Source: Candidatus Limnocylindrales bacterium
GTDB lineage: Bacteria > Chloroflexota > Limnocylindria > Limnocylindrales > CSP1-4
Direction: 5' to 3'
DNA length: 64,000 nt
Assembly: GCA_051306295.1 (NCBI GenBank)
Contig: JBPPMZ010000069.1
Span: 17,998 to 81,997, forward strand
The stretch's first letter is position 1. Every line of letters begins with the position of its first letter. Under the pieces are notes generated by a model. It was not told where the DNA came from. It did no database searches and saw only the letters and a program-made list of their open reading frames with translations. The position numbers and the translations under genes were made by a program. Of this stretch, positions 14,298-54,355 are shown piece by piece.

Positions 14298-15259
14298 CGC
14301 CAGTACGCCTCCGGATCTACGTTGCCGCCGCTGACGACGCCGACGACCGGGCCCGTGAGGTCGTCTAGGCCGGCTTCTCGCGAGCGGAACACCATCGCCG
14401 CGACGACGAGCGCGCCAGATGGCTCCACGACCAGGCGCGACCACTCGGCGGCCAGCCGGACCCCGGCCGCGATCTCCGCCTCGCTGACGACCACGATGCC
14501 GTCGAGGTGGGCGCGCATATGGGCGAACGGGCGTTCGCCGATGGACTGGGTGCGCGTGCCGTCGGCGATGGTCCGCGACACGTCCTCGGCCGACCAGCGA
14601 ACGACCGAGCCCGACGCCAGCGACTCGCGCGCGTCCGCGGCCAGTTCCGGCTCCACGCCGATGACCCGCGCCGCCGGAGCGAGCGCCTTGATCGCCGTCG
14701 CGACGCCACTCGCCAGGCCGCCGCCGCCGATCGGGACCAGGACGGCGGCGACGTCGGGCAGGTCCTCGACGATCTCCAGACCGACGGTGCCCTGGCCGGC
14801 GATGATCCGATCGTCGTCGTAGGGCGGGATGATGGCCAGGCCGCGCTCCGCAGCGATCGACTCGGCGACGCGCTGGCGCTCGTCCGACGCGGTGCCCACG
14901 ACGACGACCTGGGCGCCGTCGGCTTCGACGCGCTCGCGCTTGATGGCCGGCGCGTCCGAGGGCATGACGACGACAGCGGGGCAGCCCAGCAGCCGTGCGG
15001 CCCGAGCCACGCCCTGGGCGTGATTGCCCGAGGAGTAGGTGATGACCCCCCGCGCGCGCTGGGTGTCTGAGAGCGTGGCGACGGCGTGGTAGGCGCCGCG
15101 GATCTTGAATGCGCCGATCGGCTGGAGGCTCTCTGCCTTCAGGAAATGCCGTTGCTCCGGCGGTCCGAATGGCACGAGCGGCGTGTGGATGGCAACGCCG
15201 AGCAGGATCGTCGCCGCGGCCCGGATGTCGTCGATCGTGACGAGCGGTCGCTCGGTCAT
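14270..15259 (-). CDS. Threonine/serine dehydratase (PLP-dependent, IlvA/TdcB-like)
   Basis: FKIRGA PLP-lysine motif, SSGNHAQG, GGGGL loop. Confidence 0.85.
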   Translation of the reverse strand: MTERPLVTIDDIRAAATILLGVAIHTPLVPFGPPEQRHFLKAESLQPIGAFKIRGAYHAVATLSDTQRARGVITYSSGNHAQGVARAARLLGCPAVVVMPSDAPAIKRERVEADGAQVVVVGTASDERQRVAESIAAERGLAIIPPYDDDRIIAGQGTVGLEIVEDLPDVAAVLVPIGGGGLASGVATAIKALAPAARVIGVEPELAADARESLASGSVVRWSAEDVSRTIADGTRTQSIGERPFAHMRAHLDGIVVVSEAEIAAGVRLAAEWSRLVVEPSGALVVAAMVFRSREAGLDDLTGPVVGVVSGGNVDPEAYWRYLETPLPD

Positions 15260-15600
15260 CGCCGACCCCGGTCGAGCTCGGACTGGCAGGCGATGCAGTG
15301 GGCGGCCCAGGGCAGCGCTTCGAGTCGGGCGGGCGCGATCGGCCGGCTGCAGCGGAGGCAGACGCCGTATCCACCGGCGTCGAGCCTGGCGAGCGCGGCG
15401 TCCACCAGGTCGAGATGTGTCGACGATCGGTCGCGGAGCGCGAGGTCGCGTTGCTGCTCGAAGACCTGGCTGGCGGCGGCGGCCTGCGAGCCATAGGTCA
15501 TCTGGCCGGGCGCCTGGATCGTCTCCGCGACCTCAGCTCGGAGTCGGGTTCGTTCAGCGAGCAGCGCCGTGCGCAGCGCTGCGAGATCGGGGACATCCAT
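15256..15600 (-). CDS. DksA/TraR family C4-type zinc finger protein
   Basis: 114 aa, C-terminal CLRCSRPI...(17)...CIAC zinc finger. ATGA overlap with dehydratase gene. Confidence 0.75.
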   Translation of the reverse strand: MDVPDLAALRTALLAERTRLRAEVAETIQAPGQMTYGSQAAAASQVFEQQRDLALRDRSSTHLDLVDAALARLDAGGYGVCLRCSRPIAPARLEALPWAAHCIACQSELDRGRR

Positions 15601-15643
15601 CAGCGGAGCCTACGCCGGGCGGGGTGTCGCCGCCAGCTCGGCT

Positions 15644-15660
15644 ATACTCCTAGGGAGTAC
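15644..15660. promoter_or_regulatory. Palindromic operator ATACTCC-TAG-GGAGTAc overlapping a TATACT -10 box, in the divergent region between the dksA/traR-like gene and the YHS gene
   Basis: Seen directly. Same half-sites as the 17-bp palindrome at copA (50648-50664). Confidence 0.5.
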
Positions 15661-15681
15661 CACCCAACTGGAGGATGACCG

Positions 15682-20287: not shown

Positions 20288-20472
20288 GGCCGGGGTCGTG
20301 GATGGCGCAGCGGGGGACGTCCGGGTCTGGGTCTCTGACGCCAAGCGGTGGCCTCGTGACGGTGAGGGGGGCCCTGTCCGGGGGGTGACGGTGCGCGAAC
20401 GATGCGACGCGCCATTGGCAGTGTCAAGCACGGCTGGGACGCGTTCCGGGCACCGCGCCATAGACTCGGTGC

Positions 20473-20985
20473 ATGCAGGTGCTGTCGCGGACCATGGTCG
20501 TGCTGGCCATCGCCGCACTGGCGGCCGTCGTGGCAGGGGCGTGCGAGGCCGGCCCGCCGCCGGCGACCCCGCCCGTCGTGCCCGGGTCCTCCGCCCAGCC
20601 GCGTGAGGTCAACATCATCGCCAAGGACTACGCGTTCCTGCCCGACGCCGTGGACTTCGCGCCCGGTGAGACCGTCCTCCTGCATGTCATCAATGGCGGC
20701 ATGGAGATCCACGAAGCGATCATCGGGGATACCCGCGTCCAGGACGCCTGGGAGGTCGCGGAGGCCGCGACCGTTGGGGCCCCGCCCGGCCCGACACCCA
20801 TCGTCAGCGTCCCGCCTGATGTGAGCGGGATCCGGATCGTGGTCCGCTCCGGGGAGCGCGTGGACCTGGTCTGGACGGTCCCCGCGGACGCCGGGAGCGC
20901 GCCCTGGATCGTGGGCTGCCACATCCCGGGCCACTGGGCGAAGGGGATGCAGGTGCCTGTCCGGTGGCTCACCGCGACCGAATGA
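20473..20985 (+). CDS. Cupredoxin-like copper-binding lipoprotein
   Basis: Signal peptide plus lipobox VAGAC, His ... [12 protein letters not shown] copper ligand pattern. Confidence 0.65.
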
Positions 20986-48142: not shown

Positions 48143-49981
48143 TCAGCTACCTGACACGCCACCCTCGCCGTAGGAGCGAGGAAGCGCCTCGACCGTGGGC
48201 CGCGGCGTGCGCAGATCGCGCAGCGACTCCTGGTCCACGCCGGCGAGGCGCGGCAGGTCCGCCGACTCGGTCCGCAGCAGGCGCGACGTGAGGGTCGAGA
48301 ACACCAGTCTCTGGATCTCGGGCACGACCATCGTCGCGCGCAGTGCGTCGGCCGGCACCTCCAGGAGGATGGCGTCCTCCTCCGCGACGACATCGGCCGT
48401 CCGCGGGCTGCCGGTCAGGGCCGCGATCTCGCCGAAGAAGTCGCCGGCGCGCATCGTCGATAGACCGCGGTAGCCGCCGTCATCCTGTGGGATCCCCGCC
48501 GCCGCGACACCATCAAGGACGAAGTACGCCGACGACGCGACCTCACCGACCTGCACGATGCGCGTCCCGGAGGGAACGTCCCGGACGGTGGCATCGCGGA
48601 TGAAGGCCGCTCGCTGCTCCGGCGAGAGCCGGCTGAACGTCCCGAGGCGTCCCACCAGCCGATCGAAGTCGGCCGGCCTGGCCGCCCGCACCGGGATCGA
48701 GGCAAGGCTGGGTGCCCCCGCCATGGCCGCCGCCAGCCGCGCCGAGGCTGCCCGCCAGGTGGTGATGCCCAGGCCCGGGGCGACCAGGGTGAACGCCGCC
48801 GATACGAACAGCAGCGAGGAGGCGACGATGATGAGCAGGCGGATATCGACGATGTCGGCCAGGCCGGCGCCGGCCATGCCCAGCAGGAAGATGACATCGC
48901 GCATGACGTAGAACGCCGAGAACACGCGTCCCCGCATCTCGCGCGGCGTGTTCCGCTGAAGGATGACCGAGCGCGACACCGATGAGGGCGGCTGGAGGAG
49001 CCCGCTGATGGTCACGAGCAGGATGGCCGGCCCCACTTCTGTGGAGAAGGCGTAGCCGATCCCGGCGATGCCCATCCCGATCAGCGACACGACGATCCAG
49101 GCCGGTTCCGGCAGGAGCCGCGCGAAGCGCGCCATCAGCAATGACCCGGCCACGAACCCGACGGACGTGAGGCCTTCCTGCAGGCCGTACTCGAACTCCG
49201 TTGCGTTCAGTTCCCGGATGGAGAACGGCAGCAGGAGCACGTTCCACAGGCCGAAGGCCACGAACATGAACGCCCCGACGACGAACAGCGAGCGGATGAT
49301 CGGCGTCCCGAACAACGTGCGTATCCCGACCTTCAGGTTCGCCACGATGACCGCGACGCTGGCCTCCTCATCGGGCACCGGCATCGGGTAGCGCCCCATG
49401 AGCGAGATGAGGACGGCGCAGATGACGAACGAGGCCGCGTCCAGGATGAACGCCCAGGTCAAGCCGACGGTGCTCGCCAGCAGGCCGGCGCCGGCGAACC
49501 CGATGGCCGTCGAACCGAACGCCGCGATCGAGAGGAAGGCGTTCGCTGACGTCAGCTCCTCATCGCTGGCCATCTCCGGGATCAGGCTGTCGTGCGCCGG
49601 ATCGAAGAACTGCTTTACCCCGGCGTTGAGCAGGATCAGGGCGTACAGCCCGATGATCGAATCCATCTCCACGGTCAAGGCGATGAACCCGACGATGACC
49701 GACTGGATGAGGCACGTGACGATGAGGATCTTCTTGCGATCGTGGCGGTCGACGTAGACGCCCGCAAGCAGGCCGACGATGAGGCTGGGGACGGCCGTGG
49801 CCATGAGCGTCAGCCCGACCGCCAACGCGGACCCCGTCTCGCGATAGACCCAGATCCCGGCCGCGAGGTCGGTCAGCGACGACCCGGCGGTGGAGATGAG
49901 CTGCGCGAGCCACAGCAGGGAGAAGTCCCGGCGGCGGAACACCGCGAACATCGAGGGTGCCGGTGCGACGGCAGTGCTCAT
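48143..49981 (-). CDS. MFS transporter fused to a C-terminal cyclic-nucleotide-binding domain
   Basis: 12 TM MFS core from MSTAVAPAPSMFAVFRRRDF, then FGEIALLTGSPRTADVVA cNMP motif. Confidence 0.75.
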   Translation of the reverse strand: MSTAVAPAPSMFAVFRRRDFSLLWLAQLISTAGSSLTDLAAGIWVYRETGSALAVGLTLMATAVPSLIVGLLAGVYVDRHDRKKILIVTCLIQSVIVGFIALTVEMDSIIGLYALILLNAGVKQFFDPAHDSLIPEMASDEELTSANAFLSIAAFGSTAIGFAGAGLLASTVGLTWAFILDAASFVICAVLISLMGRYPMPVPDEEASVAVIVANLKVGIRTLFGTPIIRSLFVVGAFMFVAFGLWNVLLLPFSIRELNATEFEYGLQEGLTSVGFVAGSLLMARFARLLPEPAWIVVSLIGMGIAGIGYAFSTEVGPAILLVTISGLLQPPSSVSRSVILQRNTPREMRGRVFSAFYVMRDVIFLLGMAGAGLADIVDIRLLIIVASSLLFVSAAFTLVAPGLGITTWRAASARLAAAMAGAPSLASIPVRAARPADFDRLVGRLGTFSRLSPEQRAAFIRDATVRDVPSGTRIVQVGEVASSAYFVLDGVAAAGIPQDDGGYRGLSTMRAGDFFGEIAALTGSPRTADVVAEEDAILLEVPADALRATMVVPEIQRLVFSTLTSRLLRTESADLPRLAGVDQESLRDLRTPRPTVEALPRSYGEGGVSGS

Positions 49982-50031: not shown

Positions 50032-50595
50032 CTAGACGGCGCGTCGAGGCACCGTGACGCCCTCCCGCGCAAGGAGCTGCTGTTTGCGATCCAGGGCGTC
50101 GCCACGCCCGCCGGGTTCGTCGCCGCCATAGCCGCCCAGGGTCCCATCGGCTGCGATGACGCGATGGCAGGGGATGAGCAGGGCGATGGGACAGCGACCG
50201 ACCGCCCCGCCGACGGCTCGCGCGGCTCGCGGCGCGCCTACGCGCCGTGCGATCTCGCCATAGCTCGCCGTTTCGCCCCAGCCGAGCGAACGTACCGCCC
50301 CAAGGACGGCCTGATCGAAGGTGGGACGATCGGCGAGGTCGAGCGGCACGGAGGCGAGATCCTGCGACCGCCTGGTCAGGATGGCGTCGATCGCCGGCCG
50401 CCATCGACGCAGGAAGTCAGCCGCCGGCCCCTCCCTCACCGACTCGATCGAGCCCAGGCGTCGACCCAGATCACGCTCCATGGCCGACTCGTCGCCCCAC
50501 CACTCGGCCGCCACCACACCACGTTCCGTGGCGGCCACGGTCAACGGTCCATCGGGGCCGGGTAGGACCAGGACGGCGATCGGTTTGGCGCTCAT
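50032..50595 (-). CDS. ogt: Methylated-DNA-protein-cysteine methyltransferase
   Basis: PCHRV active-site motif. Confidence 0.85.
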
Positions 50596-50647
50596 CGTCG
50601 CGGCAGTGTGCCTGAACCTTGCCACCGCTCGCTTGCCGTCGTCTGCT

Positions 50648-50664
50648 ATACTCCCCTGGAGTAT
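50648..50664. promoter_or_regulatory. 17-bp perfect palindrome ATACTCC-CCT-GGAGTAT overlapping a TATACT -10 box and the copA ATG. Candidate metal-responsive operator.
   Basis: Perfect 7-3-7 inverted repeat. Same half-sites as at 15644-15660. Confidence 0.5.
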
Positions 50665-53383
50665 GAGAACCTTGAGCCCGACCCCTCCGCCAACCACCGA
50701 GATCCAGCTGCCCATCGAGGGCATGACCTGCGCGTCGTGCGTGAATCGCATCGAGCGATTCCTGAACAAGACGGACGGCGTCGAAGTCGCGACCGTCAAC
50801 CTCGCCACGGAGATGGCGACCATCCGCTACCTGCCCGACGTCGCCGGTCGCGAGGCGTTCGTCGCCGCGGTCGAGGCCGCCGGCTACGACGTCCGTGCCG
50901 TCCAGGAGCGGACCGCCGACGCCCCGCCCGTGACCCTCGCCGACGAGTTCACGGCCGAGGACCTGGAGCGCGAGCGCCACACCCGAACCCTGCTGCGCGA
51001 GGCGGTCGTCTCGATCGGCGTCGCGTTGCTGATCATGGTCGCGATGTTCACCCCGCAGACCAGCGTCGCGATGGAGGACATCAACCGGATCGTCCTGGTC
51101 CCGGCCACGATCATCCAGGTCTGGGCCGGCCGGCGCTTCTATCGGGCCGCGTGGCGGGCGATCAGCCACCGGACCACGAACATGGACACGCTCGTCGTGG
51201 TCGGCACGAGCGCCGCCTGGCTGTACAGCGTGTTCGTGACGTTCTTCCCCGAGGTCATCCACGAGGCCGGGCTGCACCCCGAGACCTACTTCGACTCGTC
51301 GACCATCATCATCGGCCTCATCCTGCTGGGTCGCTGGCTGGAGGCCCGGGCCAAGAGCAGCACGACCGGCGCGATCCGGCGCCTCATCGGCCTGCAGGCC
51401 ACCACGGCCCGGGTCGTCCGCGACGGTCGGGAGGAGGACGTCGCTCTGGAGGCGGTCGTCGTCGGCGACCTGCTCCGGGTCCGGCCGGGCGACAAGATCC
51501 CGGTCGACGGCGTCCTGGTCGAGGGCGCGTCGTCGGTCGATGCCAGCATGCTCACCGGCGAGCCGATGCCCGTCGAGAAGGGTCCCGGCGACGAGGTCAT
51601 CGGCGCGACCCTGAACACCACCGGCACGTTCGTCATGCGCGCCACCGCGGTCGGGCGCGACACCGCCCTGGCCCGGATCGTGGACCTGGTCAGCCGCGCC
51701 CAGGGCAGCAAGGCCCCCATCCAGCGTCTGGCCGATCGCATCGCCGAGGTCTTCGTGCCGATCGTGCTCGTCGTCGCGCTCGGGACGTTCGCGGTCTGGC
51801 TGCTGTTCGGCCCGGACCCGCGCCTGACTCTGGCGCTGACGTCGTTCATCGCGGTCGTGGTCATCGCCTGCCCGTGCGCCATGGGCCTCGCCACGCCGAC
51901 CGCGATCATGGTCGGGACGGGTCGCGGCGCGGAGGCCGGCATCCTCATCCGCGGCGGCGAAGCGCTTGAGACCGCCCATCGCGTGGACGCCGTCATCCTC
52001 GACAAGACCGGCACCCTGACCCTGGGCCGACCGACCGTCGCCGAGGTCGTGGCGGTGGCGGGCTTCAGCGCCCGCGACGTGCTGGACCTGGCGGCCTCGG
52101 CGGAGGCCGGCAGCGAGCATCCACTGGGTGCGGCGATCGTCGGACGCGCGCGCCAGGACGAGCTCGGCTTCGGCAAGATCGAGGCCTTCGAGTCGGTGAC
52201 CGGCGGCGGCGTGCGCGCGACCATCCGGACCGAGGCGGGCGAGCGTCACGAGGTCCTCGTCGGCAATCCACGCCTGCTCGGCAACGCGGGCATCGACCTC
52301 GCGCCGCTCGACGAGGCGATCTCCACTGCCACGGCCGCCGCCCGGACGCTGGCCATCGTGGCGGTGGACGGCCGCGCCGCCGGCCTGTTGGCGATCAGCG
52401 ACCCGGTCAAGGCTGAGTCCGCGATCGCCGTCCGGGAGCTGCTGGCTGCCGATATCGAGGTCTGGCTCGTGACCGGCGATGCCCGTGCCACGGCCGAGGC
52501 CGTTGCCGCCCAGGTCGGCATCCCGGCACACAACGTCCTCGCCGAGGTGCTGCCCGCCGACAAGGTCGCCGTCGTCGAGCGACTGCAGGCCCGTGGCCGG
52601 ATCGTGGCCATGGTCGGCGATGGCATCAACGACGCCCCGGCCCTCGCCCAGGCGGACCTCGGGATCGCGATCGGGACCGGGGCGGACGTGGCCATCGAGG
52701 CCGCCGGCGTGACCCTGGTCGGCGGCGATCCGCGCGGCGTCCCGGCGGCGATCGGGCTGTCGCGCGCGACGATGGGCGTCATCCGCCAGAACCTCTTCTG
52801 GGCGTTCGCCTACAACGTGCTGCTCATCCCGGTCGCCATGGGCGTGCTCTTCCCCGCGTTCGGCGTCCTGCTCTCGCCGGCCCTCGCGGCCGGAGCCATG
52901 GCCCTCTCGTCGGTCAGCGTCGTGGCCAACTCGCTCCGTCTGCGCCGCTATGACGCTCGTCCGGATGCAGCCCACCGGGTCGCCAGCGGGGGTGCGGTCG
53001 CGCGGGTGCGTGAGGCCTGGTTCCTGCTGGTCATCGCGCTCGCCTCGTTCGGTGTCGCCGGCGGCGTCCTGGCGGCCGACCAGGCGATCGAGGCCGGCGC
53101 CCAGCGTGTCGCGGTCCGCGCCGCCGATGTCCGTTTCATGCCCGCCGAGATCCGCGTGCAGGCAGGCCGGTTCGTGGTCGTCGAGTTCACCAACGACGAC
53201 CCGATCTTCCACGACTGGATGGTGGAAGGGGTCGCCAACGTTGACGCGGGCGCGCGGCCAGGCCAGACCCAGAAGATCCGCTTCCGGATCGACCAGCCAG
53301 GCACGTACGAGATCCTGTGCAGCGTCGAAGGCCATGCCGAGGCGGGCATGATGGGCACTCTGATCGTGGAGCCGGCCGAGTAG
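50663..53383 (+). CDS. copA: Copper-translocating P1B-type ATPase with N-terminal HMA domain and an additional C-terminal cupredoxin-like domain
   Basis: [27 protein letters not shown] motifs. C-terminal FHDW ... [17 protein letters not shown] (His, Cys, His, Met). Confidence 0.9.
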
Positions 53384-53633: not shown

Positions 53634-53927
53634 ATGAAACGGGCGACGATCACCGAGGCCAAGAATGGGCTGTCGGCGCTCATCGATCGGGTGAAGGCCG
53701 GCGAATCGATCCTGATCACCGATCGCGGCGTCCCGGTCGCCCGACTCGCTCCGCCGACGAGCATCAGCAACGACGATGAGGGACGGCTGACCCGGCTCGA
53801 GCGGGCGGGGCTCATCACCCGAGGCACCGGAGACTTCAGCGCCTTCCTGCAGCGAGCACCGGTCGAGACCGTCGAAGGCCACGGCATCGTTGACCTCGTG
53901 CTCGAGGAACGTGAGTCAGGCTGGTGA
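53634..53927 (+). CDS. vapB: Type II antitoxin, Phd/YefM-VapB-like
   Basis: 97 aa, N-terminal MKRATITEAKNGLSALIDRV antitoxin fold. Overlaps vapC. Confidence 0.75.
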   Translation: MKRATITEAKNGLSALIDRVKAGESILITDRGVPVARLAPPTSISNDDEGRLTRLERAGLITRGTGDFSAFLQRAPVETVEGHGIVDLVLEERESGW

Positions 53928-54355
53928 GGTTCTGGGACACGTCGGCGCTCGTGCCACTGCTGCTGCGCGAGCCGCTCTCATCCAACGCGCGCGGCTGGCT
54001 TGCGGCTGATCCGGTGATCAGCGTGTGGTGGTCGACGCCCATCGAGTGTCTGTCCGCCATCGCCCGAGCCGAGCGCGACGGTCGCATCCAACCAGCCGTC
54101 GTGCCCGACGCCATCGCGGCCCTCCGCCTGCTGCGCAGCGGCTGGTCCGAGGTGGATGCGACGTCCCGACTGCGCGACATCGCCGAGCGCCTGGTCCGGA
54201 CGCATCCCCTCCGGGCGGCGGATGCGTGTCAGCTGGCGGCCGCCATCGTCGCTGCCGAAGGCGCGCCATCGGCGTTACCGTTCGTGACCCTTGACATGCG
54301 CCTGGCCGACGCAGCGGATCGGGAAGGCTTCGAGATCATCGGTTGCCGAGCATGA
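53924..54355 (+). CDS. vapC: PIN-domain ribonuclease toxin
   Basis: WDTSALV ... acidic PIN residues. GTG start overlapping vapB stop. Confidence 0.85.
   Translation: MRFWDTSALVPLLLREPLSSNARGWLAADPVISVWWSTPIECLSAIARAERDGRIQPAVVPDAIAALRLLRSGWSEVDATSRLRDIAERLVRTHPLRAADACQLAAAIVAAEGAPSALPFVTLDMRLADAADREGFEIIGCRA

Follow-up and report, generated by a model that had tools for sequence, protein, structure and literature searches.

A predicted CsoR-type operator pair on copA and a YHS-domain gene of a Limnocylindrales bacterium

Introduction

The CsoR operators of several species carry a TAC-X9-GTA dyad, and mutation of this dyad abolishes binding by the CsoR of Streptomyces lividans (Tan et al., PMC3902906). 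Type-2 CsoR operators follow the consensus ATATACCCCTNAGGGGTATAT, with ATAC/GTAT ends and inner G/C tracts (PMC3902906). Two other operators of the wider family are relevant here. The type-1 operator of Escherichia coli RcnR has the form TACT-G6-N-AGTA (Iwig and Chivers, summarised in PMC3902906). NreA of Mesorhizobium, a member of the CsoR/RcnR family that senses Ni, has an operator TATCC-N9-GGATA in the -35/-10 spacer, and it has been shown experimentally that the nreAXY operon is leaderless, with a compact promoter/operator (PMC12724321). In this study we describe two palindromes in a 64 kb stretch of DNA from a Candidatus Limnocylindrales bacterium (contig JBPPMZ010000069.1), the whole of which is referred to below as the window. 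One palindrome (operator 1) lies on the start codon of copA, which encodes a Cu(I)-exporting P1B-type ATPase, and the other (operator 2) lies ahead of a gene for a small YHS-domain protein. We consider that the two almost certainly form a conserved, lineage-specific CsoR-type operator pair.

The likeness to type-2 CsoR operators, such as those of S. lividans, Bacillus subtilis, Listeria and Staphylococcus (PMC3902906), extends to the TAC-N9-GTA dyad, the AT-rich ATAC/GTAT ends, the inner C/G tracts and the free centre, as well as to the position on the (here putative) promoter of a copZA/copA-type efflux gene and the predicted logic of apo-protein binding and Cu(I)-driven release. Unlike type-2 operators, the window sites have T (mirrored by A) at arm position 5 and tracts of CC(C), the regulator gene of Limnocylindrales is unlinked to its targets, and the operator at copA is predicted to supply the -10 hexamer as well as the start codon of the gene. 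The RcnR operator shares with the window sites the outer TACT/AGTA dyad, spaced by 7 bp, but the window sites have the symmetry and the two short tracts of type 2; they stand at Cu rather than Ni/Co genes, and the regulators of the clade carry Cys-His-Cys (C-H-C) rather than His-Cys-His-His (H-C-H-H) ligands. With NreA they have in common a compact promoter/operator at the start codon, a dyad of the same protein family and a transcript that is leaderless (here by prediction). They differ from it in their target, copA, and in the placing of the dyad, which at copA runs over the putative -10 box and the start codon. Since NreA controls a leaderless operon from a compact operator, the design principle is already known. 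A literature search returned nothing relevant on CsoR together with YHS proteins, on CsoR in Chloroflexi, or on Limnocylindria and copper.

Two palindromes in the window

Direct reading of the sequence and a repeat search both identified operator 1 as a perfect 7-3-7 inverted repeat, ATACTCC-CCT-GGAGTAT (ATACTCCCCTGGAGTAT), whose TAC-N9-GTA match is TACTCCCCTGGAGTA (coordinates in Table 1). Its left arm falls on a TATACT hexamer, ahead of which a TG at 50644-50645 resembles that of an extended -10 (TGc), and its right arm contributes its final two bases, followed by a G, to the copA ATG (50663-50665). Operator 2 reads ATACTCC-TAG-GGAGTAC (ATACTCCTAGGGAGTAC), with a single mismatch at the last, outermost base, and keeps the dyad intact (TACTCCTAGGGAGTA). 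It ends 22 nt ahead of the YHS ATG, also overlaps a TATACT, and is identical in the independent assembly L001. An earlier note on this DNA had pointed to both sites, as a 17-bp palindrome over a -10-like box and the copA ATG and as a second copy 22 bp ahead of the YHS gene, and it was right about each. Its description of TATACT as an ideal -10 was too generous, as the hexamer matches TATAAT at 5/6 positions only.

The window is approximately 70% G+C, and sites of this kind are not expected in it by chance. Searched with ATACTCC-N3-GGAGTAT, it yields these 2 matches only, even when up to three mismatches are allowed, and the minimal pattern TAC-N9-GTA also matches at the same two places only. 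At one mismatch or fewer, the analytic expectation is 0.0035 matches per 64 kb at 70% GC, and none of 100 dinucleotide shuffles contained any match (0/100). The sites are thus real and not products of chance. Terminator scans at both sites returned nothing.

Conservation of the site and of the embedded start codon

A scan with the CopA protein, taking one genome per species, gave 80 loci. The site stands directly upstream of the gene with 0-1 mismatch in 7/7 of the closest loci (L002-L006, L016 and L030; 60-74% identity by best segment), and ATACTCC-NNN-GGAGTAT was found in none of the more distant copA loci of the same scan. Two further Limnocylindrales metagenome-assembled genomes (MAGs; L213 and L214), in which the MFS-ogt-copA synteny is kept, also have the site, and the copA start given by NCBI is in both cases the ATG within the right arm. 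Metagenome contigs were scanned with TATACTCCNNNGGAGTAT, which gave at least 120 loci. From all of these sources, a copA set of 34 distinct loci with an in-frame embedded ATG was assembled, comprising the window, the genome loci and about 25 metagenome loci among the matches listed.

The consensus of the 34 loci is tATACTCCC-N-GGGAGTATG, or ATACTCCC-N-GGGAGTAT, with invariant arms and a variable central base. Its C/G tracts are 2-3 bases long, compared with 4 in the classic box, because T/A occupies arm position 5. The palindrome and the embedded start codon are conserved together: an in-frame ATG forms the end of the right arm in 34/34 loci, a feature that the earlier note did not mention. 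The T ahead of the left arm is invariant as well (34/34), whereas the mirror base after the right arm is never A; lacking its mirrored A, this T fits a -10 hexamer and not an extension of the palindrome. Except for this T, which completes TATACT, the 50 nt upstream of the site are unconserved, and the peptide from the ATG to the GMTCxSC motif shows no constraint on either length or sequence. Conservation of a dyad around a free centre, within DNA that is otherwise unconserved, is the footprint that a DNA-binding protein acting as a dimer or tetramer leaves. The earlier note had compared the arm layout with that of CsoR boxes made of different bases. The comparison is sound, but the 6-3-6 layout that it gave is not, since each arm has 7 nt and the consensus drawn from the comparison has an 8-1-8 layout.

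Because the register of the ATG is fixed, the copA mRNA is very probably leaderless or nearly so. A functional Shine-Dalgarno sequence is not possible at copA, since GGAG ends 1 nt ahead of the ATG. Transcription probably starts at 50659-50663, which would leave a 5' untranslated region (5'UTR) of 0-4 nt. The YHS gene has a Shine-Dalgarno sequence of its own, and its transcript would be leadered, with a 5'UTR of roughly 25 nt; a YHS gene with the same layout is found in L199.

The embedded ATG also bears on the public annotation. NCBI protein P0001, assigned there to a Candidatus Limnocylindrales MAG, is 100% identical to the window CopA but is 903 aa long, with its annotated start at a TTG at 50672, 9 nt downstream of the ATG. 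This start is probably mis-annotated and the ATG at 50663 is probably the true one, because the latter is conserved in 34 orthologous loci and is the annotated start in L213 and L214. As for the protein itself, Pfam recognises an N-terminal HMA domain, E1-E2_ATPase, Hydrolase (HAD) and a C-terminal Cupredoxin_1 domain, and the match to NCBIfam TIGR01511 (copper-translocating P-type ATPase subfamily) scores 599.6 bits against a cutoff of 397. The fusion to PF13473, the cupredoxin/plastocyanin-like domain with which CopA ends, is seen in the precomputed domains of essentially all of the 120 closest CopA homologues listed; the domain might act as a periplasmic Cu acceptor or in redox handling of Cu after export.

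Table 1. Features of the window at and around the two sites (positions are those of the window)
Feature	Position	Strand	Remarks
Operator 1	50648..50664	.	T-variant CsoR-type box; TAC-N9-GTA at 50649-50663
Putative -10 hexamer TATACT, copA promoter	50647..50652	+	left arm of operator 1
copA, Cu(I)-exporting P1B-type ATPase, 906 aa	50663..53383	+	Pfam, NCBIfam, conserved in-frame ATG
Cupredoxin/plastocyanin-like domain of CopA	53075..53383		PF13473, E=2.5e-11; residues about 805-906
Operator 2	15644..15660	.	TAC-N9-GTA intact at 15645-15659
Putative -10 hexamer TATACT, YHS gene promoter	15643..15648	+	inferred from sequence; same arrangement as copA
Shine-Dalgarno GGAGGA	15670..15675	+	6 nt ahead of YHS ATG
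YHS-domain (TRASH-like) small metal-binding protein, 56 aa	15682..15852	+	PF04945, E=6.7e-15, 55.3 bits vs cutoff 30.3
DksA/TraR zinc-finger gene	15256..15600		divergent from YHS gene, upstream
ORF with a cupredoxin-type motif	20464..20985	+	see text
MFS-cNMP fusion gene	48143..49981	minus	PF07690 + PF00027
ogt, 6-O-methylguanine methyltransferase	50032..50595	minus	divergent from copA
Phd/YefM antitoxin, 97 aa	53634..53927		stop/start overlap with toxin gene
PIN/VapC toxin, 143 aa	53924..54355

The family of the binding protein

The classic box, ATACCCC-NNN-GGGGTAT, has the same 7-3-7 geometry and occurs in Devosia and Acidobacteria at loci where csoR lies beside copA (L034, L064 and L067). 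Only arm position 5 and its mirror set the window motif apart from this box (C to T and G to A), and it is this exchange that creates the TACT/AGTA dyad described for RcnR. In relatives, the exact T-variant motif is found before csoR itself. For example, in L099 the arm takes in the csoR ATG in the way seen at copA (distance d = 0), and in L194 the gene starts 6 nt past the motif, while in L097 the motif lies between divergently oriented csoR and copA genes. The csoR-copA intergenic regions of L208-L212 contain TATACTGGGGTGGAGTAT or ATACTCGGGTGGAGTAT, which have the same TACT-N7-AGTA dyad, and that of L210 additionally contains a perfect ATACTCCCAGGGAGTAT. The csoR-proximal TATACTGGGGTGGAGTAT of L208-L210 resembles type-1 (RcnR) sites, having a single G tract. 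In every case in which a regulator adjoins copA in this clade (L097 and L208-L212), it is of the C-H-C type.

The relatives carry copper-type CsoR proteins, for which PF02583 is precomputed. In alignment A1, which includes reference CsoR sequences, the Limnocylindrales-type CsoRs keep Cys36, His61 and Cys65 (M. tuberculosis numbering), the ligand set for Cu(I): C36 and H61 show no variation, and every Limnocylindrales-type sequence has C65. The motifs RLSR-x-EGQ and LQQ, which correspond to the RLxR/Gln DNA-contact motifs, are conserved in the same alignment. The best NCBIfam match of the relatives' proteins is the copper repressor RicR, at a score below its cutoff. NCBI lists P0216 as a metal-sensitive regulator from a Limnocylindrales bacterium, and its identity with the L097 CsoR is 63%.

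No CsoR-like open reading frame (ORF) was detected in the window, either by phmmer with two CsoR queries against the six-frame ORFs (nothing at E<=1) or by a regular expression for the CsoR signature, in agreement with the earlier note, which had found no repressor gene evident there. The absence is explained by the position of csoR, which in this lineage is not linked to the genes it is predicted to control. At the stand-alone loci L202-L207, found in two MAG assemblies at NCBI, from which P0216 derives, and in several ENA assemblies, csoR lies far from any copA in a conserved housekeeping neighbourhood (phosphoribosyltransferase, csoR, GidB, metallophosphoesterase, permease, Usp, TrkA, Hsp20, MerR, Lon). 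The csoR-copA divergons of L210 and L211 keep metallophosphoesterase-Usp-TrkA downstream, as at the stand-alone locus.

Other candidates for a nearby regulator were considered and rejected. A linked regulator just beyond copA was dismissed on finding no csoR within +/-10 kb in the seven close genome loci. The ogt gene, the DksA/TraR zinc-finger gene and the Phd antitoxin and PIN toxin downstream of copA were set aside on their Pfam identity.

Genes behind the motif

The motif is tied to copA, YHS and csoR genes. Among the matches listed, copA follows it in the large majority of high-GC loci. Short YHS proteins follow it in the window, L128 and L199, and in L115 and L165 it is followed by larger proteins that begin with a Cys-rich region and end in a YHS domain; ahead of csoR and YHS genes it stands at d = 6-30. 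A lipoprotein (L200) and a membrane protein (L123) also lie behind it, the former being cupredoxin-like and the latter SHOCT-like at its C-terminus, in both cases by eye only. Further copies ahead of metal-related genes, the absence of which would have told against the earlier note, are thus found in relatives, before copA, YHS-domain and Cu-type csoR genes. As read from these loci, the predicted regulon is a coherent copper set of copA, YHS proteins, csoR and a putative cupredoxin-like lipoprotein.

The larger YHS proteins of L115 and L165, of roughly 166 aa, consist of a CPCGC...CCCGNH region, a His/Asp-rich linker and the YHS domain, and have no NCBIfam match. They may represent a copper-storage or chaperone family of the clade. 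In the window, a further ORF (Table 1) has a signal-peptide-like N-terminus and a C-terminal motif typical of cupredoxins, with no CsoR-type box ahead of it.

Many of the metagenome matches are unrelated, among them low-GC genomes and, in gut contigs, an occurrence within a conserved coding region, and they were excluded by GC content and context, as was the palindrome described next. A different conserved palindrome with the same 18-mer (cagTATACTCCAnTGGAGTATAct; TATACTCCANTGGAGTATA) occurs in L085, L140, L160, L171 and L175. Approximately 10 nt past it begins a small, conserved ORF, V[HQ]TVVETPAFL...GGARKVRFAG.GKGKSGGYRV; the palindrome may be the operator of this ORF and appears unrelated to copper.

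Proposed mechanism and alternative explanations

We regard it as likely that a Cu(I)-sensing CsoR (PF02583, Cys-His-Cys), encoded at an unlinked, conserved locus outside the window, uses both palindromes as its operators. Without copper, tetramers of apo-CsoR would occupy TAC-N9-GTA. The bound protein would cover the -10 hexamer in the left arm at both genes, and at copA the right arm would also span the start site and the ATG, so that RNA polymerase would be blocked. Binding of Cu(I) would release CsoR and allow copA and the YHS gene to be transcribed; CopA would then provide copper efflux, and the YHS protein would probably bind or buffer copper. We infer the binding protein of this genome, the copper response and the positions of promoters and transcription starts from sequence comparison.

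Several points weigh against this account. The first group concerns the promoter. A scan with the sigma-70 consensus detected no complete -35/-10 pair at either site; in a lineage as GC-rich as this, such a scan is not informative. The copA promoter has no properly spaced -35, the candidates TTGCCA and TTGCCG lying 22 nt and 8 nt upstream; in several copA orthologues, TTGCC is found 17-18 nt upstream. Ten bases intervene between the final T of the copA TATACT and the A of the ATG. The usual spacing from a -10 to the start is 6-8, so copA transcription may begin 3-4 nt ahead of the ATG and not exactly on it.

The remaining points concern the regulator. That of this genome is predicted from relatives, and none is encoded in the 64 kb window. 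The stand-alone csoR promoter of L202-L205 (identical sequence in two Limnocylindrales MAG and two metagenome assemblies) carries the classic C-variant box, ATACCCCCAGGGGGTAT, about 27 nt ahead of the csoR GTG start (e.g., L202 9974-9990); the CAT that follows the box completes a -10-like hexamer, TATCAT, 10 nt ahead of the GTG. In the csoR promoters of L206 and L207, no full box was recognised, only a GTATCAT half. It is therefore assumed that one CsoR reads both C-variant and T-variant boxes, and csoR autoregulation may be variable within the class. Furthermore, the exact 18-mer is not diagnostic alone, as it occurs in unrelated contexts, and in L151 the identical motif TATACTCCCTGGGAGTATA lies between the genes for an H-C-H-H (RcnR/DmeR-like) regulator and a cation diffusion facilitator (CDF) transporter, while FrmR/RcnR-like genes follow the motif in L152 and L091. 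Because these regulators share it, the motif fixes the family but not the member or the metal. The copper assignment is drawn from the target genes and from the C-H-C regulators adjoining copA in the clade.

The regulators of L151, L152 and L091 also bring up another possibility, namely that a different paralogue of the CsoR/RcnR family binds here, RcnR/DmeR-like (H-C-H-H) or FrmR-like, and that the signal is not Cu(I), or not Cu(I) alone. E. coli RcnR is indeed described with this TACT/AGTA dyad (PMC3902906). However, the targets in the window are a Cu-type P1B ATPase (TIGR01511) and a YHS protein, and no regulator other than the C-H-C type has been found beside copA in this clade, which makes such a paralogue improbable. 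A somewhat less improbable, though still doubtful, elaboration is that the T-variant box belongs to a two-tier Limnocylindria design. A single unlinked CsoR would read both the C-variant box at its own promoter and the T-variant box, or a second paralogue would serve the latter, giving graded copper responses, and the fusion of operator, -10 and start would force a leaderless copA class-wide. In the version with a single CsoR, the C-variant box at the csoR promoter of L202-L205 would be the high-affinity site and the T-variant box at copA and the YHS gene would be distinct from it.

It is much less probable that the regulator belongs to another family altogether (CopY/BlaI, ArsR/SmtB or MerR/CueR). 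With no regulator visible in the window, the family is not fixed directly, but the geometry is that of classic CsoR boxes and the motif repeatedly adjoins PF02583 genes. A MerR/CueR activator is also at odds with a dyad that covers the -10-like hexamer up to the start codon, as a repressor would, instead of a 19-20 bp -35/-10 spacer. CopY would call for the cop box TACANNTGTA, which has zero matches in the window. Of the CsoR/CopY-type repressor site proposed in the earlier note, the CsoR half is hence upheld by dyad, geometry, conservation and recurrence before YHS and csoR genes, and the CopY half is not supported. We consider it equally improbable that no repressor is involved and that the conserved block is a promoter joined to a leaderless-initiation signal (-10, start site and ATG). 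This would suit copA, where the left arm is -10-like and the right arm carries the ATG, but GGAGTA is kept equally at the YHS gene, where 22 nt and a separate Shine-Dalgarno sequence come before the ATG, and the right arm is retained before csoR and YHS genes at the distances given above. A dyad that is symmetric about a free central base is, moreover, the signature of a protein site. Finally, a chance coincidence of AT-rich palindromes in a GC-rich genome has a negligible probability, being effectively refuted by the analytic expectation, the shuffles and the conservation at dozens of orthologous loci.

Surroundings of the two sites

The ogt gene is divergent from copA and starts only 67 bp from the copA ATG. 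Because only this distance separates the two, the ogt promoter must sit within or beside the copA promoter/operator (50596-50662). In L213 and L214 the ogt-copA distance is 57-69 bp. Beyond ogt lies a gene for a major facilitator superfamily (MFS) transporter fused to a C-terminal cyclic nucleotide monophosphate (cNMP)-binding domain, which keeps its place beside ogt-copA in L213 as in the window; its counterpart in L214, cut by the end of the locus, shows MFS domains only. Directly downstream of copA (53634-54355) is the toxin-antitoxin pair of Table 1, in place of which L213 and L214 have a 4HBT thioesterase gene. The pair looks like a local insertion.

Significance for Limnocylindria

The current understanding of CsoR biology is unchanged by these sites: the system is ordinary, in a form that is compact and lineage-specific, and a specialist would find it unsurprising. 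Its use lies in annotation, where the copA start of a public MAG would be corrected from the TTG (+9) to the embedded ATG. The module of roughly 20 bp, uniting the predicted -10, operator and leaderless start, could serve as a copper-inducible part. Limnocylindria are an abundant, uncultured class of Chloroflexota in freshwater and soil, and for this class the operator pair would provide a concrete cis-element and regulon for copper homeostasis.

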